NCBI GenBank assembly: GCA_964429295.1
Contig: CAYSBL010000009.1
Span: 1,448 to 65,447 of the forward strand
Direction: 5' to 3'
Length of the DNA stretch: 64,000 nucleotides
Source: an uncultured Rikenellaceae bacterium
Lineage (GTDB): Bacteria; Bacteroidota; Bacteroidia; Bacteroidales; VadinHA17
Shown: piece by piece, positions 5,103 through 40,516 of the stretch
How the letters are laid out: every line of letters begins with the position of its first letter
Position numbering within the stretch: the first letter of the stretch is position 1
Position numbers and translations under genes: made by a program
Notes under the pieces: model-generated
The model's input: only the letters and a program-made list of their open reading frames with translations
The model's database searches: none
Told to the model about the DNA's origin: nothing

Positions 5103-5151
5103 AAAAAAATCCCCGAATTTACACTGATATTGAAACAATGGAAAGGACTGT

Positions 5152-16840: not shown

Positions 16841-18166
16841 CTATTCGATATACATGTTCAGCAACTGCTCGAGAAGTTCCTGTTTGCCGCTTCTTACTTC
16901 GGGTTCACCTGATTTCAGCGCAAGGTTTCTAAGGTCCTCCAGGCTGAGCTTACCCTTTTCAAAATCGTTGCCTTTACCCTTATCGAACGACTGGTACCTC
17001 AGCTTCCTCATCTTAAGGTAATCACTCTCCTTAAGAATCCTGTCAGCTGCAATAAGCGCCCTTGCAAAGGTATCCATACCGCTGATATGTGCAACGAACA
17101 GATCCTCGAGGTCGGTTGAATTCCTTCTGATGTGGGCATCGAAATTAATACCTCCGGTACTGAACCCTCCTGCCTGCAGTATAACGAGCATGGCCTCGGT
17201 TATCTCATATACATTGGTAGGGAATTCATCAGTATCCCATCCGTTCTGGTAATCGCCCTTATTGGCATCAATGCTTCCAAGCAGACCGTCGCATGCTGCA
17301 ACCTGAAGATCATGTGCAAAGGTGTGGCCTGCAAGAGTTGCGTGGTTGACTTCAACATTGAGCTTGAAATCCTTGTCGAGACCATAGTTCTTAAGGAAGC
17401 CTATAACCGTAGCAGCATCATAATCATATTGGTGCTTAGTGGGTTCCATCGGCTTTGGCTCAATCAGGAATGTTCCTTTGAAACCTTTCTTCCTTCCATA
17501 ATCACGCGCAGCCGACAGCATCATTGCCATATGGTCGAGTTCTCTCTTCATGTCGGTGTTATGAAGACTCATGTATCCTTCCCTTCCTCCCCAGAAGACA
17601 TAGTTTTCTCCTCCCAGTGCTATTGTGGCATCAATCGCATTCTTCAGCTGAACAGCTGCATTGGTCACGACTGCAAAATCGGGATTGGTGGCGGCTCCGT
17701 TCATATACCTCGGATTTCCAAACAGGTTTGCAGTTCCCCAAAGCAGCTTAACCCCGGTTTGTTCCTGCAGCTTCTTCATTACCGGGACAAACTTTTCAAG
17801 CCGTTTTTCAATATCAAAAACAGATCCGTCGTTCCCCACAACATCAACATCGTGGAAACAATAAAAAGGAGCGCCTATCTTGGTGATGAATTCGAATGCT
17901 GCATCAAGCCTGTTGCTGATCTTATCATCAAGCTTCATTTTACCCCACGGGAAAAAATGCGTCTCACTGCCAAACTGATCGGTACCGTCACCACAGAAAG
18001 AATGCCAGTAGGCAATGGCAAACCGCAGATGATCCTTCATAGTTTTTCCCGAAACAACCTGCTCGGGATTATACCATCTGAAAGCAAGCGGATTCTTCGA
18101 TTTCCTGCCTTCATACTCGATCTTCCCGATACCGGGATAGAACTCTTTTCTGCCTTTGTAAATCAT
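16841..18166 (-). CDS. xylA: Xylose isomerase (class II)
   Basis: [63 protein letters not shown]. Confidence 0.97.
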
Positions 18167-18256: not shown

Positions 18257-19735
18257 TTAAACACTTTTTAGAATTTCCCTCCATTTACCATAGGCATTCC
18301 TGTAGGAATCTGTTCTCGATATATCGGGTTCGGTGATTCCCACAGGCTTCAGACCGGCAAATGCTTCACCGGCAGATTTGTAAAATCCGCATCCGATACC
18401 AGCTCCCCTTGCAGCGCCTATCGATCCATCTGTATTATAAAGGTTAATAACTGCTCCGGTTATGCACGAAAGAGCTTCCCTGAAAACCTGACTTAGAAAC
18501 ATATTCGCCCTGCCTGCCCTGATATGGCTTGCGTCAATTCCTGTCTCCTGCATTATGTCGAGGCCATACCTGAATGAAAAGGCTATGCCCTCCTGAGCAG
18601 CCCTGAACAGATGACCGCTCGAATGCCTGTTAAAATTCAGTCCCGAGATCCGGCATTCAACATCCCTGTTCCCGAGCATCCTTTCGGCTCCGTTGCCGAA
18701 AGGAAGAACCGAAAGGCCGTCGGAACCCGGACCAACTTCCGAAGCGAGCACGTTCATTCCGTCATAATCAAGATTGCTTCCGGTATTCCTTTTTAACCAT
18801 GAATTCAGTATCCCTGTGCCGTTTATGCAGAGAAGGACTCCCAGCCTGGGATTTTCAGCTGTGTGATTCACGTGAAGAAAGGTATTTACCCTGGAAAGAG
18901 GATCAAACCTGGTTATCTCAGTCACCCCGTAAATAACTCCTGAGGTGCCTGCAGTTGCAGCAACTTCCCCCGGCTGCAGGACATTTAGCGAAAGTGCATT
19001 GTTTGGCTGGTCGCCTGCACGGTATGAAACAGGAATCCCGGGCGGCAGGCCGAGTTCAGCTGCAGCACTTTCCAAAAGTCTGCCCTGAACTGAGAAGGAT
19101 TCCTTCTGATCGGGTATAATGTCACGGCTGAATCCGAAAAACTCCATCAGCTCCCGGGATAGTTCTCCCCTGATAAAATCCCAGAATATTCCCTCCGACA
19201 ATCCGGTATGGGAGGTCACCATCTCCCCTGTCATCCTCATTGCAATATAATCGCCCGGAAGCATTATCTTGTATATCCTTTCAAACAGATCAGGTTCATT
19301 CTCCTTAACCCATGCGAGCTTGGATGCTGTAAAGTTACCCGGGGAATTCAGCAGATGCGAAAGGCAAAAATCGCTTCCCAGCTTTTCAAAGGCATCCTGT
19401 CCGTACCTGACAGCCCGGCTGTCGCACCAGATTATTGAAGGCCGGAGCGGCTTCATGTCTTTTCCCACTGCAACCAGTCCATGCATCTGATAGGAAATCC
19501 CGACAGCGCCTATACCGGACTTTCTGCTGCCGAGCTGGTTGTTGCAGTCATGAATCGCCGACCGCAGATTCAGCCACCAATCCTCCGGCTCCTGCTCAGC
19601 CCAACCAGGCTCGATTGCAATGATCTTCATTTCCTCCCCGGGATAAAAGGCCGATGCAAGACATTCACCCGATTCACCATCCATTACGGAAGCTTTGACC
19701 GATGAGCTTCCCAGATCTATTCCCAATAAAAGCAT
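18257..19735 (-). CDS. xylB: Xylulokinase (FGGY family)
   Basis: LGIDLGSSSVKAS, ISYQMHGLV, IIWCDSR, AGDQPNN, GTSGV; upstream of xylA. A TACATTTG -7 box lies at 19765-19772 (minus). Confidence 0.92.
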   Translation of the reverse strand: MLLLGIDLGSSSVKASVMDGESGECLASAFYPGEEMKIIAIEPGWAEQEPEDWWLNLRSAIHDCNNQLGSRKSGIGAVGISYQMHGLVAVGKDMKPLRPSIIWCDSRAVRYGQDAFEKLGSDFCLSHLLNSPGNFTASKLAWVKENEPDLFERIYKIMLPGDYIAMRMTGEMVTSHTGLSEGIFWDFIRGELSRELMEFFGFSRDIIPDQKESFSVQGRLLESAAAELGLPPGIPVSYRAGDQPNNALSLNVLQPGEVAATAGTSGVIYGVTEITRFDPLSRVNTFLHVNHTAENPRLGVLLCINGTGILNSWLKRNTGSNLDYDGMNVLASEVGPGSDGLSVLPFGNGAERMLGNRDVECRISGLNFNRHSSGHLFRAAQEGIAFSFRYGLDIMQETGIDASHIRAGRANMFLSQVFREALSCITGAVINLYNTDGSIGAARGAGIGCGFYKSAGEAFAGLKPVGITEPDISRTDSYRNAYGKWREILKSV

Positions 19736-19836: not shown

Positions 19837-20883
19837 TCATTTCTTACCTGTTCCATGCCGCTTCTTTCTCAAAGTCGATTCCCTTATAATCAGTTCATGT
19901 TTAACTATAATGGTGCTCAGGCTTGAGGCACCCTTGTTATGCAGGATGTTGATAAGCGAATTTGCCGCCAGACGTCCTATTTCACTTGCAGGATAATCAA
20001 CTGTTGTCAGACATGGCTTTATCACCCTGCTGACAGGTTCATTGTTAAAGCCTGCCACTGCAATGTCTTCGGGGATCCTCATTCCTGATTTCTGAAGTTC
20101 GCATATAGCCGCAACCGCAGACGTATCATTGGCGGTGAATATCCCGTCGGGAGGGTCTTTCATCCTCATAACAGCCCGTGCCGCCTCTATCCCTGCCTGG
20201 CTTCCAAGCTCGCTGACCATCAGCAGTTCATCGTCGAAAGGGATCCCGTTGTCGGCCAGGGCCTGCCGGTATCCCTCAAACCTTCCTGAATATACATTGC
20301 GCAGGAGATTCCCGCTCAGATGAAGTATACGTCTGCATCCCTGACTGATAAGATGGGATGTGACTTCATATCCGGCCCTGAAGTTGTCAATCACTATGCC
20401 CATGCATCCCGGACAATTCGATACGCGGTCGAAGAATACAACCGGTATGTTCTTCCTCAGGATCTGATTGAAGTGGTCAATATTCTCGGTGTCGTAGGCC
20501 AGGGAAACAAGCAGTCCGTCAACCCTGCTGTGAAAAAGTGTAGAAACGCAACCTGTCTCTTTCTTTCCGGATTCCTGCGACTGACTGATGATCAGCCCAT
20601 ATCCCTGCTGATTTGTTATTTCTTCCATACCCGCTATCACAGTAGCCATGAAATAACTGTTAAGCTTGGGAACCACCACCCCGATCGTTTCGGTACTCCT
20701 TTTCCTCAGACTGCTTGCAAACTTATTCTGCTGGTAGCCCATCTCCCTTGCCATTGCCTTTATTCTCTTCCTGGTATCGGCATGGATGTGCGGATGATCC
20801 TTTAATCCTCTGCTGACCGTCGAAGGAGATATGTTCAGTGCTTTTGCCACATCGTAAATAGTGACATCACGGGTGGTTTTCAT
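19837..20883 (-). CDS. LacI-family transcriptional regulator
   Basis: VTIYDVAKALNISPSTVSRGL HTH, hinge FASSLR, PVVFFDR, DIAVAGFNN, LTTVDYP. Start moved to ATG 20883; own TAAATTTG -7 box at 20902-20909 (minus). Confidence 0.95.
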   Translation of the reverse strand: MKTTRDVTIYDVAKALNISPSTVSRGLKDHPHIHADTRKRIKAMAREMGYQQNKFASSLRKRSTETIGVVVPKLNSYFMATVIAGMEEITNQQGYGLIISQSQESGKKETGCVSTLFHSRVDGLLVSLAYDTENIDHFNQILRKNIPVVFFDRVSNCPGCMGIVIDNFRAGYEVTSHLISQGCRRILHLSGNLLRNVYSGRFEGYRQALADNGIPFDDELLMVSELGSQAGIEAARAVMRMKDPPDGIFTANDTSAVAAICELQKSGMRIPEDIAVAGFNNEPVSRVIKPCLTTVDYPASEIGRLAANSLINILHNKGASSLSTIIVKHELIIRESTLRKKRHGTGKK

Positions 20884-20950
20884 TGTAGGAATTTGAATAA
20901 ACAAATTTAATATAAAATGACAGACAGTGAAAATATTTATAAAAAAACCC

Positions 20951-20989
20951 GCAATCGGTTGCATATTCTATAAAACATTTTTAATTTCG
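20951..20989 (+). promoter_or_regulatory. LacI operator copy 1 overlapping the promoter of the first DUF6807 gene
   Basis: GCAATCGGTTGC (20951-20962, reverse complement of GCAACCGATTGC); its TTG lies 20 nt upstream of TAATTTCG (20982-20989). Confidence 0.8.
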
Positions 20990-21038: not shown

Positions 21039-22310
21039 ATGAATGCTGTTATCACCAACTTCAGTAAAGCAAAATCAGCTGTCGCAGCTTTGCTTCTCCT
21101 GACCGGGACATTCTGCCACGCACAGAAGATTGCATCACTCGAAGTAAATCTGAACAAGCCTGCTTCGGGCCTGAAGATCCCCGTAAGCATCAACCTTGAT
21201 GAGATCACTTATCTTTCTGATACGCTGCTTGCACTGTACGAGACCAGCGACGGAAGAACGGAACCTGTTCCTTTTCAGATAGAACCGGGCAATCCGAGAA
21301 AAATGACATGGCTTGTCGTTTCCGGAAAAGAGGAGAATGAAAAGCACACCTATGCGCTGGAAAGCCAAAAGTCCATATTCCCGTTTACGGTGAATGCAAA
21401 GTTAAAGGATGGGACCCTGCTGATCCATTCGGGAGAAAAAAACCTGCTCCAGTATTTCTTCAAAACTGTCTATCCTCCTGCCGGAGTTGATACTGCCTAC
21501 AGAAGAAGCGGATTCATCCATCCGCTTTGGTCTCCCCATGGCCAGGAACTTACCCGTATCCAGCCTCCTGATCATTTTCATCATTATGGTATCTGGAATC
21601 CATGGACCATGGTGGAATTTGAAGGCGACACCCTCGATTTCTGGAATATAAACTCAAAACAGGCGACGGTGCGCTTCGCTAACTTCGTATCGGTGACGGG
21701 AGGACCCGTTTTCTCCGAGTTCGGAGCTCTCCATGAGCATGTCGTACTGAAAAAGACCGGGATAGACAAGGTGGCAATGAATGAGCTTCAGTGTGTAAGG
21801 GTATATGAACCCGACAAAAACAACGACTGCTTCATTGTTGATTTCAATATTAATATGAACTGCGCCGGTGAAAGCCCATTCAGGATCCTTGAATACCGTT
21901 ATGCCGGACTCGGATGGAGAACAACGCAGAAATGGGACAAAATGAACAGCATGGTTCTTACATCTGAAGGAAATGACAGAAAAAGCGCTGACGGCAGCAA
22001 AGCCAGGTGGTGCATCGTTCAGGGCGAGATTGACGACGACTACGCCGGTGTCGTGATGATGTCGTTCCCTACAAACTACAACCATCCCGAACCTCTGAGA
22101 ATATGGCCTGAGAACCAGTATAACCGGGGCGACATGTTTGCAAACTTCTGCCCTACAAAGGACATGGACTGGGATCTGATCCCGGGTAAAAACTACAACC
22201 TCAGGTACAGGTTTCTGGTTTTCAATGGCCGCTTCGATAAAGAAAAGGCAGAAAGTGCATGGAACTACTTCGCCAATCCGCCCGAAGTTACTGTCCGTAA
22301 GCTAAAGTAA
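21039..22310 (+). CDS. Secreted DUF6807 (PF14100, formerly mislabelled PmoA) protein with N-terminal extension
   Basis: Signal peptide; RSGFIHPLWSP..PDHFHHYGIW, YAGLGWR, HPEPLRIW motifs typical of this family (from memory, not a search). Confidence 0.75.
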   Translation: MNAVITNFSKAKSAVAALLLLTGTFCHAQKIASLEVNLNKPASGLKIPVSINLDEITYLSDTLLALYETSDGRTEPVPFQIEPGNPRKMTWLVVSGKEENEKHTYALESQKSIFPFTVNAKLKDGTLLIHSGEKNLLQYFFKTVYPPAGVDTAYRRSGFIHPLWSPHGQELTRIQPPDHFHHYGIWNPWTMVEFEGDTLDFWNINSKQATVRFANFVSVTGGPVFSEFGALHEHVVLKKTGIDKVAMNELQCVRVYEPDKNNDCFIVDFNINMNCAGESPFRILEYRYAGLGWRTTQKWDKMNSMVLTSEGNDRKSADGSKARWCIVQGEIDDDYAGVVMMSFPTNYNHPEPLRIWPENQYNRGDMFANFCPTKDMDWDLIPGKNYNLRYRFLVFNGRFDKEKAESAWNYFANPPEVTVRKLK

Positions 22311-22362
22311 GCAGTTGATTTGGTTTTTAAATAAATAAAGACTGCTTCCTTGAAAATCACTC

Positions 22363-22400
22363 GCAACCGATTGCACATTGAAAATGTTTTCATAAATTTG
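22363..22400 (+). promoter_or_regulatory. LacI operator copy 2 overlapping the susC promoter
   Basis: GCAACCGATTGC (22363-22374); its TTG lies 19 nt upstream of TAAATTTG (22393-22400). Confidence 0.85.
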
Positions 22401-22553
22401 GTATCAGCTAACCTGATTAATCTGATCATAAATTCAATTTATCAACCCTTTAATTCAATTTTATGAAACCCGCATGATAAAATAACAAACTGGAATGCAG
22501 TTATTTGAATCATGCAGGTTCCATGTGACCTTTAAAACCAAAACTATTTACAC

Positions 22554-25500
22554 ATGAAAAAACTTCTGCTGCTGATTTTGCTTGCCGGATTCACCATGAA
22601 TCTGGCGGCACAAAAAGTTGTTACCGGCAAGGTGACGGATGAAGAACAAAATCCTCTCGCCGGGGTCTCTGTGCAGGTTAAGGGAACTACCATCGGTACT
22701 CTGACAGATGCCGAAGGTAATTTCCGCCTTCAGATTCCCGTCGATGTAAGGATACTCTCCTTCTCGTTCATCGGGATGAAACCCCAGGAAATCGAGATAG
22801 GCACACAAACCAGTTTTAGTATTGTAATGCAGGTCGATGTCGGGATGCTTGAGGAAGTTATTGTTATCGGTTATGGTACCATAAAGAAAAAAGACCTGAC
22901 AGGCGCTGTCTCCAGGATTGATGCCAATGAACTGGCGACTGAAGCCACCTCAAATGTCACAACCATGCTCAGGGGAGCAATTCCAGGACTGGCTGTGAAC
23001 CTCAGCACGAGCGCCAAAGGCCTTAGCAGTTCAAGCGACATGCTTATCAGGGGAGAAACTTCACTCAGGGCCAGCGACTCAGATCAGGCAAATGCAAATG
23101 CCCCGCTGGTTGTGGTCGACGGAATGATCTACTACGGCGACCTGGCCGATATCAACCCGGTCGACATTGAAACCTTCGACATACTGAAGGATGCATCCTC
23201 GGCAGCAATCTACGGAGCCAGGGCAACCAACGGCGTTATCCTCATCACCACAAAAAGAGGACTGAAGGGTAAACCCGTTATCAACATCAGCACCAGCACA
23301 GGGATGGCATTCATTTCCCATGCTCATTACGAAATGATGAACGGCGATCAGCACATTGCCAGAAGGATTGCAGGTTTCGAGCAGAATGAACGCCGGCAGA
23401 TTACAATCGGTCAGGGCTATTACAACAGCTATGAAAACCTGCCATCCGGCGTGACTCTCGAACAGTGGAAAGCCTATGACGGATCAACCGCTGCAACCGA
23501 CCTCGATGAAGTGTGGCTTTCAAGGATCGGCTTTGCTCCTATAGAAATTAACAACTACAAGGCAGGCAGACTTACCGATTTCAAGCAATACACATGGCAG
23601 AACGGCCTTACCCAGGACTACAACCTGAGCCTTTCAGGAAGTTCCGACGCTGTGTCCTATTACTGGTCACTCGGCTACACCGACAATGAAGGAATAAGGT
23701 ACAATGAGGAATTCAGCACAATTCGTTCAAGGATCAATCTAGATGCCGACGTCACCAACTTCCTTAAGGTTGGCCTGAATGCCCAGATGGCCTTCCGCGA
23801 CGAAAGTCCCATCTCTCCCGGAACCAGTCTCTTCAATACTCCATATTCCTCAATGTTCCAGGAAGATGGTGTAACACTGGAACTTACCCCCTCCGGCTAT
23901 ATCAACGCTCCCAACTTCTGGCTTGAAATGAGGTTCCGCGACCGCTACCGGAAATACAACACACTGAACAGCAAAATATTCGCAACCATTACCCTGCCTC
24001 TTGGCTTCTCCTTCACCTCCGAATTCATACCCAGGTTCAACTGGAACCGCGATTACAACAGCTACTCTTCAGGCCACTTTGAGTGGGCATTGCAGGGCGG
24101 AAGAGCCTCGAGGGCAAATACCACAGTCTTCGAATGGCAGATCAACAACATGCTGAAATGGAACAAAACTATCGGAGATCATGCCTTCGATGCAACCTTC
24201 GTTCAGAACGCCGAGAAATATAATTACTGGTATGAATACATGGAAAGGCAGAACTTCCAGCCTTCCGACGTGCTGGGCTACCACAGGATGCAGGCTGCAA
24301 CAGAGGACGTTTCCCTTACCAGCAACGATGAAACCAGTACGGGCGATGCTCTCCTGGCACGATTGAATTACACATTCAAATCGAGGTATAATCTTACTGG
24401 ATCATTCCGCCGCGATGGCTATTCAGCCTTCGGACAGGCTAACCCAAGGGCCAATTTCTGGTCGGTGGCAGGAGGCTGGACAATCAGCGAGGAAGAATTC
24501 TTCAATATCGACTGGATCGACCAGCTTAAACTGAGATTGTCGTACGGCGTCAACGGAAACCGCGGTGTCGGAATCTATGATGCCCTCTCCAACCTTAACT
24601 CCGGCAAGTTCCTGCTGATTGAAGGCGGAGTTGAACAATACGTTTCACAGCTTTATACCAGCCGTATGGCAAATGCCAACCTGAAATGGGAACGCACATC
24701 AGCCTATAACGGAGGACTCGACTTTGCAGTGCTGAAAGGAAGACTCAGAGGTACTCTGGAGGCTTACTTCTCGATCACCGAAGACCTCATAATCCCGCGC
24801 CAGCTTCCCAATGTAACAGGTTATGCAAGCGTTTTCTCAAACCTGGGCCAGGTCAACAACAAGGGATTTGAATTTACCCTGAATTCAGTGAATATCTCAA
24901 CTCCTGATTTCACCTGGACTTCAGACTTCTCTGTATCACACAACAGCAATAAGATCGTTCATCTGTTCGGGGATTATGTGACAGACGAAGTAACGGGAGA
25001 ACAGAAGGAGGTTGACGATATCACCAATGAATGGTTCATTGGCCATGCAATTGATGAAGTGTGGGATTACAAAAGCCTTGGAATATGGCAGGTATCTGAA
25101 ACTGCGGAAGCCACCGCTTATTCCCGCTCACCCGGTGACTACAAGCTTCTCGATTTCAACGAAGACGGATACTACACCAATGACGACAAACAGTTCCTTG
25201 GCTTCAGAAGGCCTAGAGTAAGACTAAGCCTCAGGAATGACGTGCAGTACAAGAACTGGGAGTTATCGCTTAAAATGTACTCATATCTCGGGCATTTGAA
25301 AGCAGACAACTTCCTGAGAAACAATGAAGCATTCTACGACAGGGGAACCTATTACGATGTTCCATACTGGTCTGCCGATAATCCGGGCAACAAATGGGCA
25401 AGGGTAGAAAGCTACGAGACCAACTTCAATGTATGGGAGAAAAACTCATTCATAAGGCTCGATAATGTGTCGCTTTCATACAATATCCCCAGCAGGGTGC

Positions 25501-25646
25501 TGTCGAAGATTAAAGTAGTAAACTGCAGATTATCCCTGGTTGCCGACAACCCGCTTGTTTATGCTCCCTACTGGTCATGGATGGATCCGGAAAATGATTC
25601 CTATACACCTTCCTATATTTCATTCAAAGTAAACATCACCCTTTAA
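22554..25646 (+). CDS. susC: SusC/RagA TonB-dependent receptor
   Basis: Signal peptide, carboxypeptidase-regulatory-like N-domain, VIGYGT..KKDLTGAV, PLVVVDG, DIETFDILKDASSAAIYGARATNGVILITTK, LKWE. Confidence 0.97.
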   Translation: MKKLLLLILLAGFTMNLAAQKVVTGKVTDEEQNPLAGVSVQVKGTTIGTLTDAEGNFRLQIPVDVRILSFSFIGMKPQEIEIGTQTSFSIVMQVDVGMLEEVIVIGYGTIKKKDLTGAVSRIDANELATEATSNVTTMLRGAIPGLAVNLSTSAKGLSSSSDMLIRGETSLRASDSDQANANAPLVVVDGMIYYGDLADINPVDIETFDILKDASSAAIYGARATNGVILITTKRGLKGKPVINISTSTGMAFISHAHYEMMNGDQHIARRIAGFEQNERRQITIGQGYYNSYENLPSGVTLEQWKAYDGSTAATDLDEVWLSRIGFAPIEINNYKAGRLTDFKQYTWQNGLTQDYNLSLSGSSDAVSYYWSLGYTDNEGIRYNEEFSTIRSRINLDADVTNFLKVGLNAQMAFRDESPISPGTSLFNTPYSSMFQEDGVTLELTPSGYINAPNFWLEMRFRDRYRKYNTLNSKIFATITLPLGFSFTSEFIPRFNWNRDYNSYSSGHFEWALQGGRASRANTTVFEWQINNMLKWNKTIGDHAFDATFVQNAEKYNYWYEYMERQNFQPSDVLGYHRMQAATEDVSLTSNDETSTGDALLARLNYTFKSRYNLTGSFRRDGYSAFGQANPRANFWSVAGGWTISEEEFFNIDWIDQLKLRLSYGVNGNRGVGIYDALSNLNSGKFLLIEGGVEQYVSQLYTSRMANANLKWERTSAYNGGLDFAVLKGRLRGTLEAYFSITEDLIIPRQLPNVTGYASVFSNLGQVNNKGFEFTLNSVNISTPDFTWTSDFSVSHNSNKIVHLFGDYVTDEVTGEQKEVDDITNEWFIGHAIDEVWDYKSLGIWQVSETAEATAYSRSPGDYKLLDFNEDGYYTNDDKQFLGFRRPRVRLSLRNDVQYKNWELSLKMYSYLGHLKADNFLRNNEAFYDRGTYYDVPYWSADNPGNKWARVESYETNFNVWEKNSFIRLDNVSLSYNIPSRVLSKIKVVNCRLSLVADNPLVYAPYWSWMDPENDSYTPSYISFKVNITL

Positions 25647-25657
25647 AATTACCGGAC

Positions 25658-27535
25658 ATGAAAAAGATATTTTTAACGATAGTATTCCTGACAACTCTGG
25701 TTTTTATAGGTCCGAGGTGTTCCGAAGATTTTCTCAAACCTGAACCTTTATCATTCTATGCCCCTGAAAACACTTTTGTTAATGCCGCCGGATTCAATGC
25801 TGCGCTTATTGCATGCCTGCGAAATGCAAGGCATGAAATGTACGGAGATACTCCTCCCTTTATTTCAGAGGGTATCTTTTCAGACATAGCGGTGGAGGGC
25901 ACTACTGATAAAACCGGGATCCATATGGATATGCCGGCTGTAATACTGCCTGATGCAAACTTCAACTACGGCGACGTGACAAAGCTGGGCAACTACTGGA
26001 CCGAAGCCTACAACAGGATCAAGTATGCAAATGTGGTAATTTCAAGGATCGACAATGCAGAATGGAAAAGCGATGCCGAACGAAACAATATACTTGGCAA
26101 AGCTTACTTTCACAGGGCGAATGTCTATTACAGGCTTGTCCATCAGTTCGGCGATGTGCCTCTTATTCTTGAAGAGATAACCCAGCCAAGGCTGGATTTC
26201 TATTCCTGCACAAGGGAAAGTATACTCCAGAAATGCAAAAAGGACCTCGACTTTGCAGCCCAGTGGGTTGATGCCGATGCTCCCATCGGAGACATAAACA
26301 AGGCAGCCGTCAACCATCTTCTTACCAAGGTCAACATGTCGCTGCTGGAATTCGATGATGCCATAGCCTCCGCAAGCGCAGTCATAAATGACGGGATACA
26401 CGCCCTGATGACCACACGCTTCGGCTCGTACAAGAATGATCCGGCACACGACATTATCTGGGACCTTCACCAGGAGGAGAACAAGGCTCTCGCCGAAAAC
26501 ACTGAAACGATATGGCTGTTTGTATGCAGTGAGACAATGACTGAAGACGGTGCAAGCGAGAAACTCAGAATAATGCGACAGGCGGTTCCGTACTGGGGCG
26601 GCGCAGGAAAAGTAAAAACTCCTACAGGCCAGACGGGAACAACCGACCAGCCGGGAGGAGCTCTGGTGGGCGGATTTCCTGTTGAAATAAACCAGGTCGG
26701 TATGTATGGCAGAGGCATCGGACGTCTTCGCCCCAGCCCGTGGTACCAGCATGGCCTGTGGGATGATCCAAACGACATGCGTCATAAATATCCCAACTGG
26801 ATGAGGATGGAAGACCTGGTTTACAATGTCCCCGGACTGAAGGCAAACGGCGACCCGTACTACAACCAGCATCTGCAACTTTTCGATGCGGGAGGAGGAA
26901 TCCTGTGCACCGATACCATAAGATCATGGTTCGACTGGCCACATTATAAACTGTATGTAATCGACCCGACCGACAACACACCCGACGGTGGCTATGGCGA
27001 CTGGTACGAAATGCGGCTTGCAGAAACATACCTCCTGAGAGCCGAAGCCTATTTCTGGAACGATCAGCCTGATCAGGCGGCAGCCGATCTTAACGCAGTC
27101 AGGACACGTGCCGGATGTGCCCCCTATACAACCGACCAGATAAATATCGGTACCATCCTGGATGAAAGGGCCAGGGAACTGTATTACGAGGAGAAACGGA
27201 AAACAGAACTGACTCGTATTGCCTACATACTTGCAAAAACAGGAAAACCCTGTTATAACGGGAAAACATACAGTATGGGAAATTTCGGGACAGATAATTT
27301 CTGGTATGACAGGGTCATCGAAAAGAACGTCTTCTACAGGGATAATGTAAAGGCTCCGTTCTATAATTACCGGATAGCCCCGTATATTGTCCTTTGGCCC
27401 GTTCTCTCATCCGCAATAAATGCAAACAGCCTCGGACATATTAACCAGAATTTCGGATATCCGGGATATGAATCAAATGTTACTCCCTGGAAATGGGTCG
27501 ATGGAGAAGGCGAAGGATCTGTTGTTGAACAATGA
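25658..27535 (+). CDS. susD: SusD/RagB surface lipoprotein
   Basis: Cys after the signal peptide (RCSEDFL), FHRANVYYRLVHQFGDVPL, RLAETYLLRAEA, NAVRTRAG, ILDERARELYYE; follows susC. Confidence 0.96.
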   Translation: MKKIFLTIVFLTTLVFIGPRCSEDFLKPEPLSFYAPENTFVNAAGFNAALIACLRNARHEMYGDTPPFISEGIFSDIAVEGTTDKTGIHMDMPAVILPDANFNYGDVTKLGNYWTEAYNRIKYANVVISRIDNAEWKSDAERNNILGKAYFHRANVYYRLVHQFGDVPLILEEITQPRLDFYSCTRESILQKCKKDLDFAAQWVDADAPIGDINKAAVNHLLTKVNMSLLEFDDAIASASAVINDGIHALMTTRFGSYKNDPAHDIIWDLHQEENKALAENTETIWLFVCSETMTEDGASEKLRIMRQAVPYWGGAGKVKTPTGQTGTTDQPGGALVGGFPVEINQVGMYGRGIGRLRPSPWYQHGLWDDPNDMRHKYPNWMRMEDLVYNVPGLKANGDPYYNQHLQLFDAGGGILCTDTIRSWFDWPHYKLYVIDPTDNTPDGGYGDWYEMRLAETYLLRAEAYFWNDQPDQAAADLNAVRTRAGCAPYTTDQINIGTILDERARELYYEEKRKTELTRIAYILAKTGKPCYNGKTYSMGNFGTDNFWYDRVIEKNVFYRDNVKAPFYNYRIAPYIVLWPVLSSAINANSLGHINQNFGYPGYESNVTPWKWVDGEGEGSVVEQ

Positions 27536-27648
27536 ACTTAAAATGATTTAAGAAACAACTGTTTCCTTTAATCAATATTGATCCTAATATTTATCTTTAT
27601 GATTCAGAACAACTGTGTTTCTTAAAACCTCAAAATGATTATGGTCAT

Positions 27649-27681
27649 CCCCCCGGATGGAATGTCAGATCCACCGGGGGG
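27649..27681 (+). other. GC-rich stem-loop after susD (mRNA stabilising or attenuating)
   Basis: CCCCCCGG-A-TGGA-(8 nt)-TCCA-CCGGGGGG with no U-tract. Confidence 0.65.
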
Positions 27682-27720
27682 CAATACCAGTTGACAGACA
27701 AAAACCAAAAAAGGAAATAA

Positions 27721-29094
27721 ATGAAAAGACGAATTTTCATCTCCAGGACTGCTCAGGCTGCAGCAGGATCGCTGATTCTGCCGACTATAGTTCCCTCTTC
27801 GGTTATAGGCAGGAATCCCCCAAGCGAAAAGATCAACATAGGATGGATAGGCTGCGGGAGGCAGGGAAGAGGCGATATCATGGGTACTATGAGATTCGAC
27901 ACTGCTATGGTGGTAGCCGCTGCCGATGTAGATTCTAAAAGGGTGGCCCTTGGCAAGCAGATGGTAGAAGGCTTCTATTCAAAGAAGACAGGAAACAGCA
28001 ATTATGTCAATGTAAAAACATACGGCGACTACAAGGAACTGCTGCTCGACAAATCGATAGATGCGGTAGTGATTACCACACCCGACCACTGGCACTCACA
28101 GCCCGCCATCGAAGCTGCACTTGCCGGCAAGGATATCTATCTTGAAAAACCTACTTCGCTTACCATTACCGAAGGAAGGCTTCTGAGCGATGTGGTTAAG
28201 AAAACAAAGGTCATCCTGCAGGTTGGAACCCAGCAGCGCTCAAGTCCTCAGTGGAGGATCGCCGCCGAACTGGTCAGGAACGGAAGAATAGGCAAGCTTC
28301 ATACTGTCAAAATTGGTCTGCCCGGGGACCCGGCCGGACCGGAGGCCCCTGAAATGCCGGTTCCGCCTAACCTCAATTACGACATGTGGCTGGGATCAAC
28401 ACCCGAAGTCTATTACACCGAAATCCGCGTCCATCCTCAGAAGGATTTCGATCGCCCGGGCTGGCTGAGATGTGAGCAATTTGGCGCCGGCATGATCACA
28501 GGCTGGGGACAGCATCACTTCGACTCGGCTGCCTGGGGCATGGATACAGAACTCACCGGACCGGTATCGATCGAGGCAGTGGCTCAATTTCCCAAAGCCG
28601 GACTGTGGGATGTTCACGGCGATTTTATGTCAATAGCAGAATACGCCAACGGGGTGACACAGCTTACAAGCGGAAGTTATCCCAACGGAGTAAGATATGA
28701 AGGAACAGAGGGATGGATCTTTGTAACACGAGGTAACTACAGGGCTACCGACAGTGATCCGATAGTCCAGGCTCAAAACACCAAAGCACTCGATGCCAGC
28801 GATCCAAAGATCCTTACTTCAGTGATCGGACCCAACGAGATCCACCTCTATGAAAGCAGTGACCAGGCAGGCAACTGGCTCGACTGTATTAAATCGAGAA
28901 AGGAACCCATCTCACCGGTTGAAATCGGCCACAGGGCCTGCACGGTATGTCTTGTCACCCATATAGCAATGAAACTGGGAAGAAGACTGAAATGGAATCC
29001 TGAAACTGAAAAGTTTGTGGGCGACGATGAGGCCAACAGCATGCTTTCAAGGCCACAGAGAGCCCCCTACGGCACAAATTACATCAAATTGTAG
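27721..29094 (+). CDS. Tat-exported Gfo/Idh/MocA oxidoreductase
   Basis: KRRIF twin-arginine signal, IGCGRQG Rossmann motif, TPDHWH, YLEKP, QVGTQQRS. Confidence 0.92.
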   Translation: MKRRIFISRTAQAAAGSLILPTIVPSSVIGRNPPSEKINIGWIGCGRQGRGDIMGTMRFDTAMVVAAADVDSKRVALGKQMVEGFYSKKTGNSNYVNVKTYGDYKELLLDKSIDAVVITTPDHWHSQPAIEAALAGKDIYLEKPTSLTITEGRLLSDVVKKTKVILQVGTQQRSSPQWRIAAELVRNGRIGKLHTVKIGLPGDPAGPEAPEMPVPPNLNYDMWLGSTPEVYYTEIRVHPQKDFDRPGWLRCEQFGAGMITGWGQHHFDSAAWGMDTELTGPVSIEAVAQFPKAGLWDVHGDFMSIAEYANGVTQLTSGSYPNGVRYEGTEGWIFVTRGNYRATDSDPIVQAQNTKALDASDPKILTSVIGPNEIHLYESSDQAGNWLDCIKSRKEPISPVEIGHRACTVCLVTHIAMKLGRRLKWNPETEKFVGDDEANSMLSRPQRAPYGTNYIKL

Positions 29095-29209
29095 GTTTTA
29101 ATTTAAGGGACCCGCATGCACCTCAAGACTCATTTTTGAATGGGATTGTATTGTGCATGCGGGTTTTCTTTCCTGACAGATCAAGAAACAGTTCAACAAA
29201 CACAAAGTA

Positions 29210-30118
29210 ATGAAAAGACTTATAAGCGGCACCCTCGCAATCCTGGCGGGAAGCTTTTTAATCATGCCTGTATCCGCCGCCAGACTCACAGCAGAGAAAA
29301 CAGGTTCCAAAATCAATGTGAGCATCGACGGAAAATTCTTCACCAGCTACATCTTCACGGAAGATGAGAAATACCCCTTCTTCTATCCGGTCAACGGACC
29401 GGTCACCGGAGGCTCGGTAACATCCATGAGAAATGCAGTTTACCCCCACCATACATCCCTTTTCTTCGGATGCGACATGGTTAACGGGGGAAATTACTGG
29501 CAGGAAGGACTTGACCGGGGCAGAATAATCTCGGTGAATGCCCGGATTGAAAAAGAAGGAGGCGATACTGTTGTTATAACAGACGAATGCATATGGAGCC
29601 GCCCGGGTGCAGTCTCGCCCATGAAGGACACACGCAGGTACATAATAACCGCACCATCGGCAGACAAAATTGTCATTGACGTCGAGATCACCATGATGAC
29701 ACTGATGGATGTCCGCATCAGGAAAACAAACCACTCACTTTTCAGCGCCAGGCTGGCAGCCGACATCTCGGTTACCAACGGAGGCACCATGATAAACGCC
29801 GAGGGGGCAAGCAGCGAAAAGGATACTTTCGGAAAGAGATCCCCCTGGATCGACTTCAGCGGCTCAAGAGGAAATACAATTGAAGGTCTTGCCATTATGC
29901 AGCATCCTTCAAATCCCTGGTACCCGGCCCCCTGGTTCACACGCGATTACGGATTCATCTCCCCCACACCGATGTACTGGCCTGAAAATGGTGAAGAGAC
30001 TTTTATTAAGGACGGAACCAGACTGGTTCTTAAGTACAGGGTTATTGTCCATTCAGGCGACCATAAACAGGCTGATATAGCCGGCGAGTTCAAAAAATAC
30101 ATTTCCGGTACGTTATAA
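29210..30118 (+). CDS. Secreted DUF6807 protein (second paralog)
   Basis: Signal peptide; KYPFFYPV, YPHHTSLFFG, HPSNPWYPAPWFTRDYG. Confidence 0.75.
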   Translation: MKRLISGTLAILAGSFLIMPVSAARLTAEKTGSKINVSIDGKFFTSYIFTEDEKYPFFYPVNGPVTGGSVTSMRNAVYPHHTSLFFGCDMVNGGNYWQEGLDRGRIISVNARIEKEGGDTVVITDECIWSRPGAVSPMKDTRRYIITAPSADKIVIDVEITMMTLMDVRIRKTNHSLFSARLAADISVTNGGTMINAEGASSEKDTFGKRSPWIDFSGSRGNTIEGLAIMQHPSNPWYPAPWFTRDYGFISPTPMYWPENGEETFIKDGTRLVLKYRVIVHSGDHKQADIAGEFKKYISGTL

Positions 30119-30148
30119 CATTGTTATAACATCTTCAGAGGAAGGATT

Positions 30149-30197
30149 TGAGGCGTGAGGCGTGAGGTGTGAGGCGTGAGGCATGAGGCGTGAGGCG
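30149..30197. repeat. Heptamer tandem array (TGAGGCG)x7 with two variant units
   Basis: Read directly; lies between convergent operons. Confidence 0.95.
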
Positions 30198-30206
30198 TTG
30201 ACCTGA

Positions 30207-30893
30207 CTAATGGGTTTTTCTATAAAGGCAGTCTGTCCTGTGGCATGAAATGCAAGGAAAAGGATCAAAGCTTACATTCCTTCCAATACCTATCATCCCG
30301 CTTACCGATTTTTCAGGACGCATTAAAGCCGAGTCATTAAGGCTTATCCCGCAGTTATTATCGGGCATCAGCCTGAACAGGGCATGCTGATCAGAAACAT
30401 CCCACCCGCAATATCCTGGACTGTAGCGGTTTGTAACCTTGTTGCCGGATTCCCCGGCAGCTTTGCTTACTTCCTGCAGGAGCAGGCCGGATGCTCTTTC
30501 CGCAATCTCACTTCCGATAATATCGTAGATGTAAGAAGCAAGCGGATCGCCGTCCTCCATCGACTTCCCCGCGAGTTTTTCAGTACCGGGACCTGCAGTG
30601 CAAAGGAAAATGGCGATGGATTCTGCCAGGCTGAGCTGTTTGAAAACAATGTCTTTAAGATTGAATACAACATCGCTCAATGTGACTGTTTTTTCTTCAT
30701 CATTCCATTCCCCGACGGGAAAGACCCTATACTCAGCTTTTACAGTGCATACCCGGGAAGCATTATTCAGCAGTTCCGTTATCAATCCTGAAAATTCATG
30801 ATGAGGATAACCGTCCCTCTCCGCCAGAACCCGGCCGATGCGGTTCTCATCGACCCCAAGATCCGAAAAATCATATTCCAGAGAAGTAATCAT
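30207..30893 (-). CDS. Stand-alone MetH reactivation-domain-like protein
   Basis: FLCTAG, RYSPGYCGW, M.PEKSVSGMIG and C-terminal CxxCxxxxCxYR; ATGA overlap with the upstream gene. Confidence 0.8.
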   Translation of the reverse strand: MITSLEYDFSDLGVDENRIGRVLAERDGYPHHEFSGLITELLNNASRVCTVKAEYRVFPVGEWNDEEKTVTLSDVVFNLKDIVFKQLSLAESIAIFLCTAGPGTEKLAGKSMEDGDPLASYIYDIIGSEIAERASGLLLQEVSKAAGESGNKVTNRYSPGYCGWDVSDQHALFRLMPDNNCGISLNDSALMRPEKSVSGMIGIGRNVSFDPFPCISCHRTDCLYRKTH

Positions 30894-32332
30894 GACTGAT
30901 CAAGTCCCGCTTCACGTACAATCCGTCCCACTACTTCTTCCCATCCGAGCGACATCAGGTGTACGCCGTTGATCCCCTTTTTTTGTTTCAGCGATGCGAT
31001 AAGTTCGAGAGCTATTGCAATTCCTTCCTCACTGGCGCCGTCGCCCGCCTTCTCCATTCTCCTGAGTATCCTGTCAGGCAGATATACTCCGGGAACCTTT
31101 TCATGCAGATAAAGAGCAGCCTTATAACTTTTAAGCGGAACCAGTCCGGCCAGGATGCTTACCTTGCCGAGCACATTCCTCCTGTCGAGCTGCTCCAGCC
31201 AGGGATCGAGCTTTTCCGGTTCGAAAATTATGTTGGTCTGGAAAAACTGTGCTCCCGCGTTTATTTTTTTCTGATCCCTTATTGCCTGGAGTTCAGGATC
31301 GAGTGCGCAAGGAGTGGTGGCAGCTCCAAGAAAGTACTTCGGAGGATGTTTCATCTTTCTCCCGTCGAGGTAGATTCCCTCGTCCCTCATTTTCCTGAGT
31401 ATCCAGAGCATCTGGACCGAATCGAGGTCATATATGTTCATATTACTGGCAGGGGGTGGTCCGACAACCGGACTGTCGCCGGTGACACAAAGAATGTTCC
31501 TGATCCCGAACTGACCCGCAGCTATGGCATCTCCCTGCAATGAGATGCGTGTTGCATCGCGGGCTGCAATCTGAAAGACCGGCTCTGCATTCATATCAGC
31601 GGCAACCTTGCAGCAGGCGAGTGCCGACATCTTCGGAATGGCCGACGAAGCATCCGTGAAATTTATGGCGTTAACATAGGGTCTGACAAGGTCAATGTCA
31701 TTCTTTAGTTTCCCGGAATCCGAACTAAGCGGCGGTGTGACTTCAGTGGCAACCACGAAACGGCCTTCCCTCAGAGATCTCTCGAGCTCCGACGCAGGCT
31801 CAGTATAGGCCGGAGGATGGTAATCTGAATCGCCGTTCCACCATGCAGGCTGCCTGACTGTCATGAATACCGAGTCCCATACCTGTTTTTTAGCTTCCCT
31901 GTCGTGCGAAAACAAAGATCTGAAAAATCTTCCGGGTCCCACTATTCCTATCTGTCTGCCTACATCCGCCCATGTTTCGGTACCGGCCCTGTTCCAGTCG
32001 AGCGGAGGAAGAACCTCGAGGAGTGTCTCCTGGCGCTTGATCTTCCTTGCCCGGTTATAGATGGCATGCCACACGCATCTTCGTGTCGGATCGACATAAC
32101 AGCGGCCTTCGGGAGTAACTCCGCCGCAGGGCCCGTTCCTGAGCCCTTTCGGACACTCCATACAACAGATAAAGGCTGTTTCCTGCAGAAGGCAGTTGCC
32201 GCACATCCTGCATCCCCAAATCGGACCTTTTACAATTATCTCTATATACTCACGGAACCGTTTCCCTAAAGACTCCCTTTTGAACGGATAAAAACGGGGT
32301 TGCCAACGGCGGGCAGGCTTGATACCAGACAT
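30890..32332 (-). CDS. metF: MetV-MetF fusion methylenetetrahydrofolate reductase
   Basis: Cys-rich N-domain CRMCGNC..CPKGLRNGPCGG..CYVDPTRRCVW (MetV/MTHFR_C type), followed by a MetF barrel (TEVTPP, NFTD, NILCVTGD, AGAQFFQT). Confidence 0.88.
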   Translation of the reverse strand: MSGIKPARRWQPRFYPFKRESLGKRFREYIEIIVKGPIWGCRMCGNCLLQETAFICCMECPKGLRNGPCGGVTPEGRCYVDPTRRCVWHAIYNRARKIKRQETLLEVLPPLDWNRAGTETWADVGRQIGIVGPGRFFRSLFSHDREAKKQVWDSVFMTVRQPAWWNGDSDYHPPAYTEPASELERSLREGRFVVATEVTPPLSSDSGKLKNDIDLVRPYVNAINFTDASSAIPKMSALACCKVAADMNAEPVFQIAARDATRISLQGDAIAAGQFGIRNILCVTGDSPVVGPPPASNMNIYDLDSVQMLWILRKMRDEGIYLDGRKMKHPPKYFLGAATTPCALDPELQAIRDQKKINAGAQFFQTNIIFEPEKLDPWLEQLDRRNVLGKVSILAGLVPLKSYKAALYLHEKVPGVYLPDRILRRMEKAGDGASEEGIAIALELIASLKQKKGINGVHLMSLGWEEVVGRIVREAGLDQS

Positions 32333-32364
32333 ATCCAGAGGTATTAATTCTTAAGGGAAGGTAC

Positions 32365-33207
32365 TCAGGAATTGCGGCTTTGATAATATTCCACAAACCT
32401 TATTGCAAAGTCGTCCCTCCCCAGAACAAGATCGGCAGCCCGGGCAGCAGCAGTTATTTTTTCAGGATTTGCTATCGGGCATGTAACTCCGCAATAAACG
32501 GCAAGAGTCAGGAAAGCCGTGTTGAGCGACTCCCTGTCGGGCAGACCGAATGATATGTTACTGGCCCCCATGGTTATATTCTGACCAAGCTTCCGGTTAA
32601 CCAGCCTGATAGTTTCCAGCGTCACCAGGCAGGCCCGGGGATCGGCGCTGACTGCCATGGCCAGAGGATCGGCAATGACATCTTCAGCCTTCATTCCCGC
32701 TGAAACAGCCCTTTCAATTATCCTTTCAATTATTGCCACACGCTTTTCGGGATCATTGGTGATACCGTCATCATCCATGCATAATCCTATAATGGCCGCT
32801 CCGTATTCGCTTGCAAAAGGGATCAGGGCCTTAAGGGATTCTTCCTTCCCGTTAACCGAATTGATAAGGCATCTCCCGGCGGAAACCTTAAGTGCAGCTT
32901 CAATGGCTGAAGGATTGGGAGAATCGAGACACAGCGGGATATCAAAGTTATCCTGGATAGCCGACACAACTTCCGGAAGAAGCTTCACATCATCAACACC
33001 CGGATAACCCACATTTACGTCGAGAACATCGGCACCTGCATTTATCTGGCTGGCCGCCAGTTCAAGAACATAGGAAAAATCTCCCTCCTGAAGCGATGAA
33101 ACCAGTTTCTTACGGCGGGTCGGGTTTATCGATTCGCCAATAATAACAACAGGACCACCGGTTTCAATGACAACCTCCCTGGTCCTGCCTGATAGTAATG
33201 TCTTCAT
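32365..33207 (-). CDS. Pterin-binding methyltetrahydrofolate:corrinoid methyltransferase (AcsE / MetH pterin module)
   Basis: IIGESINPT, QINAGADVLDVNVG, LCLDS, LINSVNG, GASNISFGLP motifs. Confidence 0.9.
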   Translation of the reverse strand: MKTLLSGRTREVVIETGGPVVIIGESINPTRRKKLVSSLQEGDFSYVLELAASQINAGADVLDVNVGYPGVDDVKLLPEVVSAIQDNFDIPLCLDSPNPSAIEAALKVSAGRCLINSVNGKEESLKALIPFASEYGAAIIGLCMDDDGITNDPEKRVAIIERIIERAVSAGMKAEDVIADPLAMAVSADPRACLVTLETIRLVNRKLGQNITMGASNISFGLPDRESLNTAFLTLAVYCGVTCPIANPEKITAAARAADLVLGRDDFAIRFVEYYQSRNS

Positions 33208-33209
33208 GA

Positions 33210-33946: not shown

Positions 33947-33985
33947 CAAAAGTAATTAATATAATTTGTTTATGCAACCGATTGC
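33947..33985 (-). promoter_or_regulatory. LacI operator copy 3 overlapping the promoter of the corrinoid operon
   Basis: GCAACCGATTGC (33974-33985). On the minus strand its TTG (33977-33975) lies 20 nt upstream of a perfect TACTTTTG -7 box (33954-33947). Confidence 0.85.
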
Positions 33986-34040
33986 AGAAATGTTTTTATT
34001 AAAGATTTTAACGCTGCCGATCTGTCTCCTTACTATAACA

Positions 34041-39068: not shown

Positions 39069-39112
39069 AATTGCGGTTTTTGTCGTAATAGCTTTACATT
39101 TACTTGATTCCA

Positions 39113-40489: not shown

Positions 40490-40516
40490 AGGTCCTTATG
40501 TATTAGCTATTACGTT

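Follow-up and report, generated by a model that had tools for sequence, protein, structure and literature searches.

We analysed a 64-kb window of DNA (contig CAYSBL010000009.1) from a Bacteroidales bacterium of anaerobic sludge, in which a SusC/SusD-type locus encodes two proteins of the DUF6807 family (PF14100), DUF6807L (P0001) and DUF6807S (P0002), together with a Gfo/Idh/MocA oxidoreductase (P0003) exported by the twin-arginine (Tat) pathway. The locus extends the oxidative glycan-processing systems with an uncharacterised enzyme family and with a conserved, unexplained tie to methyl-group metabolism. Its conserved core is the pair formed by the oxidoreductase and DUF6807S, and DUF6807 very probably works together with the exported dehydrogenase on keto-sugars.

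The oxidoreductase and its DUF6807 partners

As proposed in the initial annotation of this DNA, Pfam and NCBIfam identify a five-gene locus made up of DUF6807L, susC, susD, the oxidoreductase gene and DUF6807S (Table 1), and no glycoside hydrolase (GH), polysaccharide lyase (PL) or carbohydrate esterase (CE) family matches any of the five proteins. Both DUF6807 proteins score far above the PF14100 gathering cut-off of 27 bits. The adjacent transporter and lipoprotein genes, 11 bp apart, form the SusC/SusD pair expected of a polysaccharide utilisation locus (PUL), and the classical carbohydrate-active enzymes (CAZymes) of such a locus are missing. GH109, a family of NAD-dependent glycosidases, belongs to the Gfo/Idh/MocA superfamily, so the absence of a glycoside hydrolase holds for the classical families only. 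The arrangement is not a matter of chance, since it recurs in relatives with 62–90% identity. The hydrolase-free state is specific to the present lineage; relatives carry GH3, GH67, GH115 and CE15 beside the Gfo-DUF6807S pair.

Conservation was mapped, with the window proteins as queries, in the neighbourhoods of 80 related loci (numbered with the prefix L) that encode DUF6807S orthologues of 62–90% identity, one genome per species, drawn from Bacteroidales, Prolixibacteraceae, Runella, Emticicia, Proteiniphilum and Gaoshiqia. An orthologue of P0003 (750–1040 bits) is the immediate, co-directional neighbour of DUF6807S in 64 of the 80 loci, at a median gap of 44 bp, and the order is oxidoreductase then DUF6807S in 57 of these 64. 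Of the 80 loci, 32 contain DUF6807L and 20 contain SusC; the pair persists in loci without SusCD, for example between a XylA-XylB unit and a corrinoid operon. In 23 of the 80 the pair is followed by another oxidoreductase, a lipoprotein that combines a Gfo N-terminal domain with PF16490 and is absent from the 64-kb window.

The N-terminus of P0003, MKRRIFISRTAQAAAG, contains a twin-arginine motif, RRxF(I/L), that is conserved in the orthologues, and from sequence comparison the protein is probably a sugar 3-dehydrogenase that carries NAD. Among NCBIfam models it matches the glycoside 3-dehydrogenase BT_2158_fam best, at 131 bits against a cut-off of 750, and its best sequence matches in the Protein Data Bank (PDB), 8tdf and 8tdh, cover the N-terminal half only. 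These two entries are deposited simply as 'dehydrogenase'; we take them to originate from the study of oxidise-then-eliminate glycan breakdown, an origin that a literature search did not confirm. P0003 also matches the GH109 structure 2ixa (E 1.3e-10, over residues 21–166 of the Rossmann part only), the superfamily member glucose-fructose oxidoreductase (GFOR), which is periplasmic and Tat-exported (E 2e-9), and, weakly, the NCBIfam models of the xylose 1-dehydrogenase Gfo6.

A cleavable signal peptide, conserved in the orthologues, is present in each DUF6807 protein, and orthologues of P0001 are devoid of a lipobox cysteine, from which the two are predicted to be soluble periplasmic proteins. 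They share 19% identity and probably do different jobs. The initial annotation had left their fold to structure prediction, and the models place both on a galactose-mutarotase-like supersandwich. The AlphaFold2 model of P0002 is all-beta, with a predicted local distance difference test score (pLDDT) of 94, and its Foldseek matches in the PDB, at a probability of ~1, are headed by OpgD (GH186) and include domain 5 of LacZ, GalM and hexose-6-phosphate mutarotase, with the P1 domain of YidC and the N-terminal domains of GH65 and GH94 as further matches on the supersandwich. The AlphaFold2 model of P0001 (pLDDT 84.6) has an extra Ig-like N-terminal domain, and its best match is the PL26 exo-rhamnogalacturonan lyase 5xqg, with a template-modelling score (TMq) of 0.56 and E 1e-9. 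The likeness to mutarotases is one of fold only: neither P0001 nor P0002 matches Aldose_epim in Pfam, and sequence and profile searches of the PDB with the two proteins returned only AcrF8 at E 0.23, which is noise.

The consensus of the DUF6807 family contains the motifs DHPHH, HGDVNG, DTKEG, WGK, DHP and WHxRDYG. In the clade of P0002, YPHH, GC and KTNHS stand in place of consensus motifs and RDYG is kept, whereas P0001 keeps DHFHH and has lost TKE and RDYG. Invariant polar residues include H80, R142, R181, E203, E225, H232, R245 and Y247 in P0002 and D178, H179, H181 and H182 in P0001, in whose alignment 76 columns are invariant among 23 orthologues. The enzymatic role that the initial annotation gave to DUF6807 presupposes conserved catalytic residues, and invariant His, Asp, Glu, Arg and Tyr residues are indeed numerous.

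Other identities for the DUF6807 proteins were considered and rejected. A methane oxygenase ('PmoA') does not agree with soluble, secreted, all-beta proteins that have no membrane helices. The conserved, cleavable signal peptides exclude a role as the cytoplasmic substrate methyltransferase (MT1) missing from the corrinoid operon, and a surface glycan-binding lipoprotein was dismissed on the lack of a lipobox cysteine in the orthologues and on the persistence of the pair without SusCD.

At large, the family is extensive, with 2360 clusters at 50% identity retrieved by one query. The old 'PmoA / methane oxygenase' label of PF14100 persists in surveys of methane metabolism (PMC7914226), and one PF14100 gene belongs to an operon for lactose use on a Verrucomicrobia cosmid, where it is flanked on both sides by genes reported to confer lactose cleavage (PMC5342196). 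Among the cluster representatives is a fusion of two DUF1080 domains to DUF6807 (P0125), followed by a Gfo gene. ThuA (PF06283) is fused to DUF6807 in a protein of 549 aa at 2661–4310 (−) of L040 and also in L028, L035, L039 and L042; in these 5 loci the fusion adjoins a ThuB-like gene of the Gfo/Idh/MocA superfamily, and the main Gfo-DUF6807S pair lies a few kb away. Proteins of ~1000 aa (P0126, P0129, P0134, P0139 and P0257) join DUF6807 to HEAT_2 repeats and resemble the 'membrane-bound dehydrogenase' type of the Planctomycetes-Verrucomicrobia-Chlamydiae (PVC) group. In a survey of one distant subfamily (80 metagenome loci, 115 immediate neighbours), Gfo/Idh/MocA was the commonest neighbouring family (10), followed by KduI (5), AP_endonuc_2 (4) and TatA (4); one distant gene (P0188) lies 14 bp after a Gfo gene and another (P0250) behind a TIM barrel. 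The association of DUF6807 with Gfo enzymes is enriched family-wide and obligatory only in particular clades, including the present one.

A shared operator and the link to methyl transfer

Allowing at most one mismatch, the palindrome TGCAACCGATTGCA occurs at exactly three sites in the 64 kb (20950, 22362 and 33973); matches with three mismatches are at chance level. Across 16 related loci the core motif of this operator keeps the three positions. Copy 1, in the interval between lacI and DUF6807L, is conserved in position in L007, L011, L021 and L030 and also falls within the promoter region of the lacI-xylB-xylA unit. Copy 2, between DUF6807L and SusC, is conserved in L005, L007, L009, L013 and L019, and copy 3, located 5' of the corrinoid gene, in 14 related loci. 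Because three copies within 64 kb recur at the same positions in 16 related loci, the predicted co-regulation of the sugar locus with the neighbouring methyl operon, already assumed in the initial annotation, is well founded. That annotation had also allowed for distal glycoside hydrolase genes that share the operator and supply conventional hydrolysis; within the window, none of the other glycosidase genes (GH172, GH127, GH116, GH43, GH2 and GH92) carries it.

Table 1. Features of the sugar locus, the divergent lacI unit and the methyl-transfer operon (positions within the 64-kb window).
Feature	Position	Strand or sequence	Evidence and remarks
XylA, xylose isomerase	16841..18166	−	NF003998 679 bits, above cut-off; last gene of the divergent lacI-xylB-xylA unit
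XylB, xylulokinase, FGGY family	18257..19735	−	TIGR01312 290 bits, below the cut-off of 380; FGGY_N and FGGY_C domains
LacI-family repressor	19837..20964	−	LacI helix-turn-helix and Peripla_BP_1/3 domains
Operator copy 1 (predicted)	20950..20963	TGCAACCGATTGCG on − strand	between lacI and DUF6807L; 1 mismatch to the palindrome
DUF6807L (P0001, 423 aa)	21039..22310	+	PF14100 213 bits; signal peptide; Ig-like N-terminal domain (~residues 29–110), then DUF6807 supersandwich with DHxHH motif
Operator copy 2 (predicted)	22362..22375	CGCAACCGATTGCA	upstream of susC; 1 mismatch
SusC/RagA TonB-dependent transporter	22554..25646	+	TIGR04056 707 bits against a cut-off of 368; Plug and CarboxypepD_reg domains
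SusD-family lipoprotein	25658..27535	+	PF07980 E 3e-45; PF14322
Gfo/Idh/MocA oxidoreductase (P0003), Tat-exported	27721..29094	+	PF01408 and PF19051; KRRIF motif
DUF6807S (P0002, 302 aa)	29210..30118	+	PF14100 199 bits; signal peptide; single-domain, divergent subfamily
Corrinoid/tetrahydrofolate methyl-transfer operon, four genes	30207..33878	−	Pfam; convergent to the sugar locus
Operator copy 3 (predicted)	33973..33986	perfect TGCAACCGATTGCA	upstream of the corrinoid operon; zero mismatches

The presumed regulator, a LacI-family protein, has orthologues at the same position in L001–L004, L007 and L011. As listed, its open reading frame of 375 aa is 27 residues longer than the orthologues (348 aa), and the true start codon probably lies downstream of the listed one, since the relatives are shorter and operator copy 1 lies inside the 5' end of the frame. 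Four metatranscriptome runs contain the whole locus; the depth of the Logan contigs is flat at 22–30 over genes, intergenic regions and both operons and is uninformative on expression or induction.

By Pfam, the co-regulated operon encodes a B12-binding protein (PF02310/PF02607), a pterin-binding methyltransferase (PF00809), a methylenetetrahydrofolate reductase (MTHFR) of the MetV-MetF type and a MetH-activation-like protein, and it thus contains the corrinoid protein and the methyl-corrinoid:tetrahydrofolate methyltransferase that mark an O-demethylase system. It adjoins the Gfo-DUF6807S pair in 27 of the 80 loci, including loci without SusCD and across other changes. In 18 other loci a cytoplasmic protein resembling URO-D (cluster c1) is encoded 46 bp upstream of DUF6807L; at 4071–5117 (+) of L037, for instance, it has 344 aa. 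In genomes of the Prolixibacteraceae type its gene opens the DUF6807L-Gfo-DUF6807S operon. In NCBIfam, c1 scores highest against MtaA/CmuA (66 bits; HemE, 51), and substrate methyltransferases of the MtvB/MtoB type group with the MtaA/CmuA family (PMC8630106). The c1 gene and the corrinoid operon never occur together within ±8 kb, and methyl-transfer genes of either kind are found in 45 of the 80 loci.

Repeat elements, namely a heptamer array and a G/C-rich palindromic element resembling repetitive extragenic palindromes (REP), flank the corrinoid operon at 30131–30198 and 34040–34117. They are multi-copy in the community, since public assemblies break there and contig depth rises 2–4 fold.

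Elsewhere in the window, a second and more canonical oxidative cluster at 38172–41749 (−) comprises DUF2961/GH172, an enzyme of 458 aa from the Gfo/Idh/MocA superfamily and a TIM barrel of the AP_endonuc_2 family (38172–39113), to which the known 3-keto-glycoside lyases belong. The cluster lacks the LacI operator and is kept beside the methyl operon in several relatives (L001–L004, L018, L027, L045 and L058). A third Gfo/Idh/MocA enzyme (457 aa, PF19051 C-terminal domain) is encoded directly upstream of a GH116 enzyme at 54058–58253 (+), a possible dehydrogenase-glycosidase pairing. A class-V aminotransferase-like gene (520 aa) lies at 12180–13742 (+), and in 8 loci of the Prolixibacteraceae type a related Aminotran_5 gene (cluster c4) lies no more than 8 kb from the DUF6807 operon.

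Substrate, proposed route and alternatives

The surroundings of the pair point towards xylan and its uronic acid side chains. Recurrent neighbours in the 80 loci are GH3 (10 loci), the alpha-glucuronidase GH67 (8), UxuA (7), short-chain dehydrogenases/reductases (SDR; 6), the glucuronoyl esterase CE15 (5) and the xylan alpha-glucuronidase GH115 (2), and XylA and XylB adjoin the pair in 12–14 of the 80. In the Runella and Emticicia loci the pair is surrounded by UxuA, GH67, SDR and CE15. Carriers available in culture include Proteiniphilum acetatigenes DSM 18083 (L072), Gaoshiqia hydrogeniformans Z1-71 (L073), Runella aurantiaca YX9 (L084) and Emticicia sp. W12TSBA100-4 (L083). The most complete combination of methylglucuronoxylan and methyl-transfer genes was found in a fen Bacteroidales metagenome-assembled genome (L021; PLLO01000012.1, 1–16795), where GH67 and LacI are followed by GH115, the oxidoreductase (after 26 bp) and DUF6807S (after a further 12 bp), and then by CE15 and GH3, which run in the same direction as the genes for the corrinoid protein, the pterin methyltransferase, MTHFR and the activation domain. 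From these contexts we infer that the 4-O-methylglucuronic acid side chains of xylan are the most likely substrate. The alpha-glucuronidases GH115 and GH67 stand directly ahead of the pair in relatives, so that the compound acted upon may be the released 4-O-methylglucuronic acid and not the intact glycoside.

A chemical precedent comes from the AL system, in which AL3, the Tat-exported Gfo enzyme, generates a 3-keto-glycoside by means of NAD that does not exchange, the 3-keto-beta-glycoside 1,2-lyase is a TIM barrel and DUF1080 acts as 3-keto-alpha-lyase and hydratase; reaction was very slow in vitro, a result that to the authors 'suggested a missing component', and 3-keto-glucose was mainly a furanose mixture (preprint 10.1101/2024.03.25.586180). 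For the present locus we tentatively favour a LacI-controlled regulon for a xylan sugar bearing 4-O-methylglucuronic acid, handled by a periplasmic keto-sugar route and not by classical hydrolysis. SusCD would import a methylglucuronic-acid-bearing xylo-oligosaccharide or the free acid, and the NAD-loaded, Tat-exported P0003 would oxidise a ring hydroxyl, at C3 by analogy with AL3/BT2158. Both DUF6807 proteins would act on the keto-sugar, with base- or metal-assisted elimination and re-hydration as the likeliest reaction and isomerisation of the ring or tautomer as an alternative, and reduction of the product by P0003 would regenerate its own cofactor. Xylose would enter the cell and be used via XylA and XylB, and the O-methyl group would finally reach tetrahydrofolate through the cytoplasmic corrinoid system.

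The initial annotation had suggested that DUF6807 may be a lyase or hydratase of keto-glycosides. The broader part of this proposal, a role beside the oxidoreductase, gains from the pairing with Gfo, the DUF1080 and ThuA fusions, the carbohydrate-enzyme fold and the invariant residues; none of these shows which reaction takes place, and a lyase, a hydratase, a keto-sugar mutarotase or an isomerase are all possible.

Several observations weigh against the favoured route. The C3 regiochemistry of P0003 is assumed by analogy, given its low score against the BT_2158 model and PDB matches limited to its N-terminal half, and the structural matches of P0002 are weak, with TM scores of 0.35–0.45. DUF6807 occurs fused to or beside known lyases and would thus add a step rather than replace them. 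The co-occurrence of DUF6807 with Gfo enzymes, which the initial annotation had named as a check, is strong among the orthologous loci, but among the distant loci sampled Gfo is present in only ~14% and most have no Gfo neighbour, one distant gene without it being P0217. No functional study or biochemical datum for any DUF6807, PF14100 or PmoA-family protein was found in the literature searched. At least one xylan or uronate marker accompanies the pair in only 32 of the 80 loci, and because of this the assignment to xylan side chains stays conditional; some Prolixibacteraceae loci carry GH35, GH95 and GH106, of gum or pectin type, and DUF1080 instead, a set compatible with methylglucuronic acid from gums or arabinogalactans. 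In the relatives that bear GH115 or GH67, glycosides may be cleaved in the conventional way. The sugar module is periplasmic and the methyl system cytoplasmic, a difference of compartment that counts against direct hand-over, and the 64-kb window contains no homologue of c1 (the candidate MT1), no DUF1080 and no c0-type reductase.

The initial annotation had suggested that elimination could also release a methoxy group, as another link to the methyl operon. This finds no support as worded: by simple chemistry a 3-keto group should activate loss of the C1 substituent or of the ring oxygen and not of the 4-O-methoxy group, whose release would need another regiochemistry. Enolisation of the 3-keto group, on the other hand, could make an enol ether of the methyl ether and so provide a far better leaving group. 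On this basis P0003 and DUF6807 might form the front end of an oxygen-independent demethylation of sugar methyl ethers, a role that we regard as unlikely. Oxidised and tautomerised 4-O-methylglucuronic acid would become an enol ether with an enolate as leaving group, DUF6807 would serve as the enabling keto-sugar tautomerase or eliminase, and the methyl group would be taken by a cobalt(I) corrinoid through an MtaA/CmuA-like methyltransferase and passed to tetrahydrofolate, or addition of water would release methanol.

P0003 could instead be a self-contained NAD-dependent glycosidase of the GH109/GH4 type that performs oxidation, elimination, addition of water and reduction in one site, with the DUF6807 proteins as mutarotase-type helpers that interconvert anomers or ring forms for cofactor recycling. 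P0003 does match 2ixa (E 1e-10) and has the Tat signal and the type of PF19051 C-terminal domain in common with it, yet this match is weaker than those to 8tdf and 8tdh and is confined to the Rossmann domain. The fold of DUF6807S resembles galactose mutarotase and hexose-6-phosphate mutarotase, the furanose-rich 3-keto-glucose, very low rates and 'a missing component' of the AL work (preprint 10.1101/2024.03.25.586180) would suit such a helper, and in the DUF6807-DUF1080 fusion it would add a step without duplication. The absence of any Aldose_epim match, a His-rich DHxHH motif that differs from the catalytic set of mutarotases, and two paralogues of 19% identity in one locus, more than a simple mutarotase would require, make this reading rather unlikely. 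Oxidation by P0003 at the anomeric carbon, as in GFOR and aldose 1-dehydrogenases, would convert released uronic acid or xylose to a lactone, with DUF6807 supplying the anomer or opening the lactone. It draws on the matches to GFOR, which is likewise periplasmic and Tat-exported (E 2e-9), and to Gfo6, and on the mutarotase-like fold of DUF6807S; we consider it very unlikely, as the best matches of P0003 are glycoside 3-dehydrogenases and not C1 dehydrogenases, the DUF1080 and ThuA fusions point to C3 chemistry, and the neighbours XylA/XylB and UxuA imply non-oxidative use of xylose and glucuronate.

The DUF6807 proteins could also act independently of P0003. Were they a new GH or PL family on uronic-acid glycans, the locus would have glycan cleavers of its own, which would agree with two periplasmic proteins in a PUL without known CAZymes, with the top matches of P0002 to OpgD, a GH186 glucanase on the same fold, and of P0001 to a PL26 lyase with a cleavage site adjoining galacturonic acid, and with KduI, which acts on unsaturated uronate products, as the second commonest neighbour of distant DUF6807 genes. 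The TM scores are modest, however, ordinary GH115, GH67 and GH3 enzymes stand beside the pair in relatives, and a connection of the family with oxidised sugars is indicated by its tight pairing with Gfo in 64 of the 80 loci and by its fusions to ThuA and DUF1080, so that a new cleaving family appears quite improbable. The supersandwich is non-catalytic in LacZ domain 5, the YidC P1 domain and the N-terminal domains of GH65 and GH94, and no cofactor motif is evident in DUF6807, so one may think of sugar-binding or chaperone-like periplasmic proteins that serve the transporter or the oxidoreductase. This we hold to be least probable of all, in view of the many invariant charged and His residues over >2000 sequence clusters, the persistence of the pair in loci without SusCD and the fact that neither protein is a surface lipoprotein.

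Significance and relation to known systems

If DUF6807 is the partner of exported sugar dehydrogenases, the 'PmoA / methane oxygenase' label would be corrected and a third, non-homologous enzyme type would be added to oxidise-then-eliminate glycan breakdown. The 4-O-methyl group of glucuronoxylan is among the most abundant methyl ethers of plant biomass, and in the literature searched we found no described pathway for its anaerobic fate, nor one for corrinoid-linked demethylation of methylglucuronic acid. The recurring combination of an alpha-glucuronidase, the Gfo-DUF6807 pair and methyl-transfer genes of two kinds makes the fate of xylan methyl groups testable. If the demethylation reading were true, it would provide the first anoxic pathway for these groups and the first corrinoid O-demethylase that acts on a carbohydrate.

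With galactose mutarotase and other aldose 1-epimerase fold enzymes, OpgD (GH186) and the PL26 lyase, both DUF6807 models share the beta-supersandwich at a Foldseek probability of ~1.0, but DUF6807 has no sequence similarity to them, TM scores are 0.35–0.56 and the motifs (DHxHH, TKE/TNH and WxxRDYG) are different. Classical glucuronoxylan PULs of Bacteroidota (GH10/GH43/GH67/GH115/CE15) resemble the relatives, in which the pair stands with GH115, GH67, CE15, GH3, UxuA and XylAB, whereas the present locus is devoid of those hydrolases and has a LacI-family regulator rather than a hybrid two-component system. Corrinoid O-demethylases, composed of MT1, a corrinoid protein (CP), a second methyltransferase (MT2) and an activase (MtvABC, OdmABCD and MtoABCD; PMC8630106), have in common with the present system the corrinoid protein and the pterin-binding methyltransferase, and related DUF6807 operons contain an MtaA/CmuA-like protein. 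Aryl methyl ethers are the substrates of the known systems, all of whose components are cytoplasmic, whereas here periplasmic sugar enzymes are linked to the operon, MT1 is absent from the window and the activase is of the MetH type.

Disaccharide 3-dehydrogenation by ThuAB of Sinorhizobium and Agrobacterium, and the DUF1080 enzymes for 3-keto-disaccharides, likewise combine a Gfo/Idh/MocA dehydrogenase with an accessory protein; the present window has neither ThuA nor DUF1080, and we would guess that the accessory role of DUF6807 resembles that of ThuA. The closest parallels are AL1–AL5 of Alistipes and BT2156–BT2160 of Bacteroides thetaiotaomicron (10.1101/2024.03.25.586180; PMC8121099), which also begin with a Tat-exported Gfo/Idh/MocA enzyme, employ periplasmic partners and need no Koshland glycosidase. 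P0003 is far below the equivalog cut-off of BT_2158. The operon described here has no TIM-barrel lyase (AL1/BT1), the only AP_endonuc_2 protein of the window belonging to the separate GH172-Gfo cluster, and no DUF1080 (AL2/BT2), for which a tblastn search of the window with a DUF1080 (PF06439) protein was negative and which lies within ±8 kb in only 4 of the 80 related loci. Two DUF6807 proteins stand in their place, SusCD and LacI are found where the AL and BT systems have a DUF6377 regulator, and the locus is linked to genes for xylose, glucuronate and methyl transfer.

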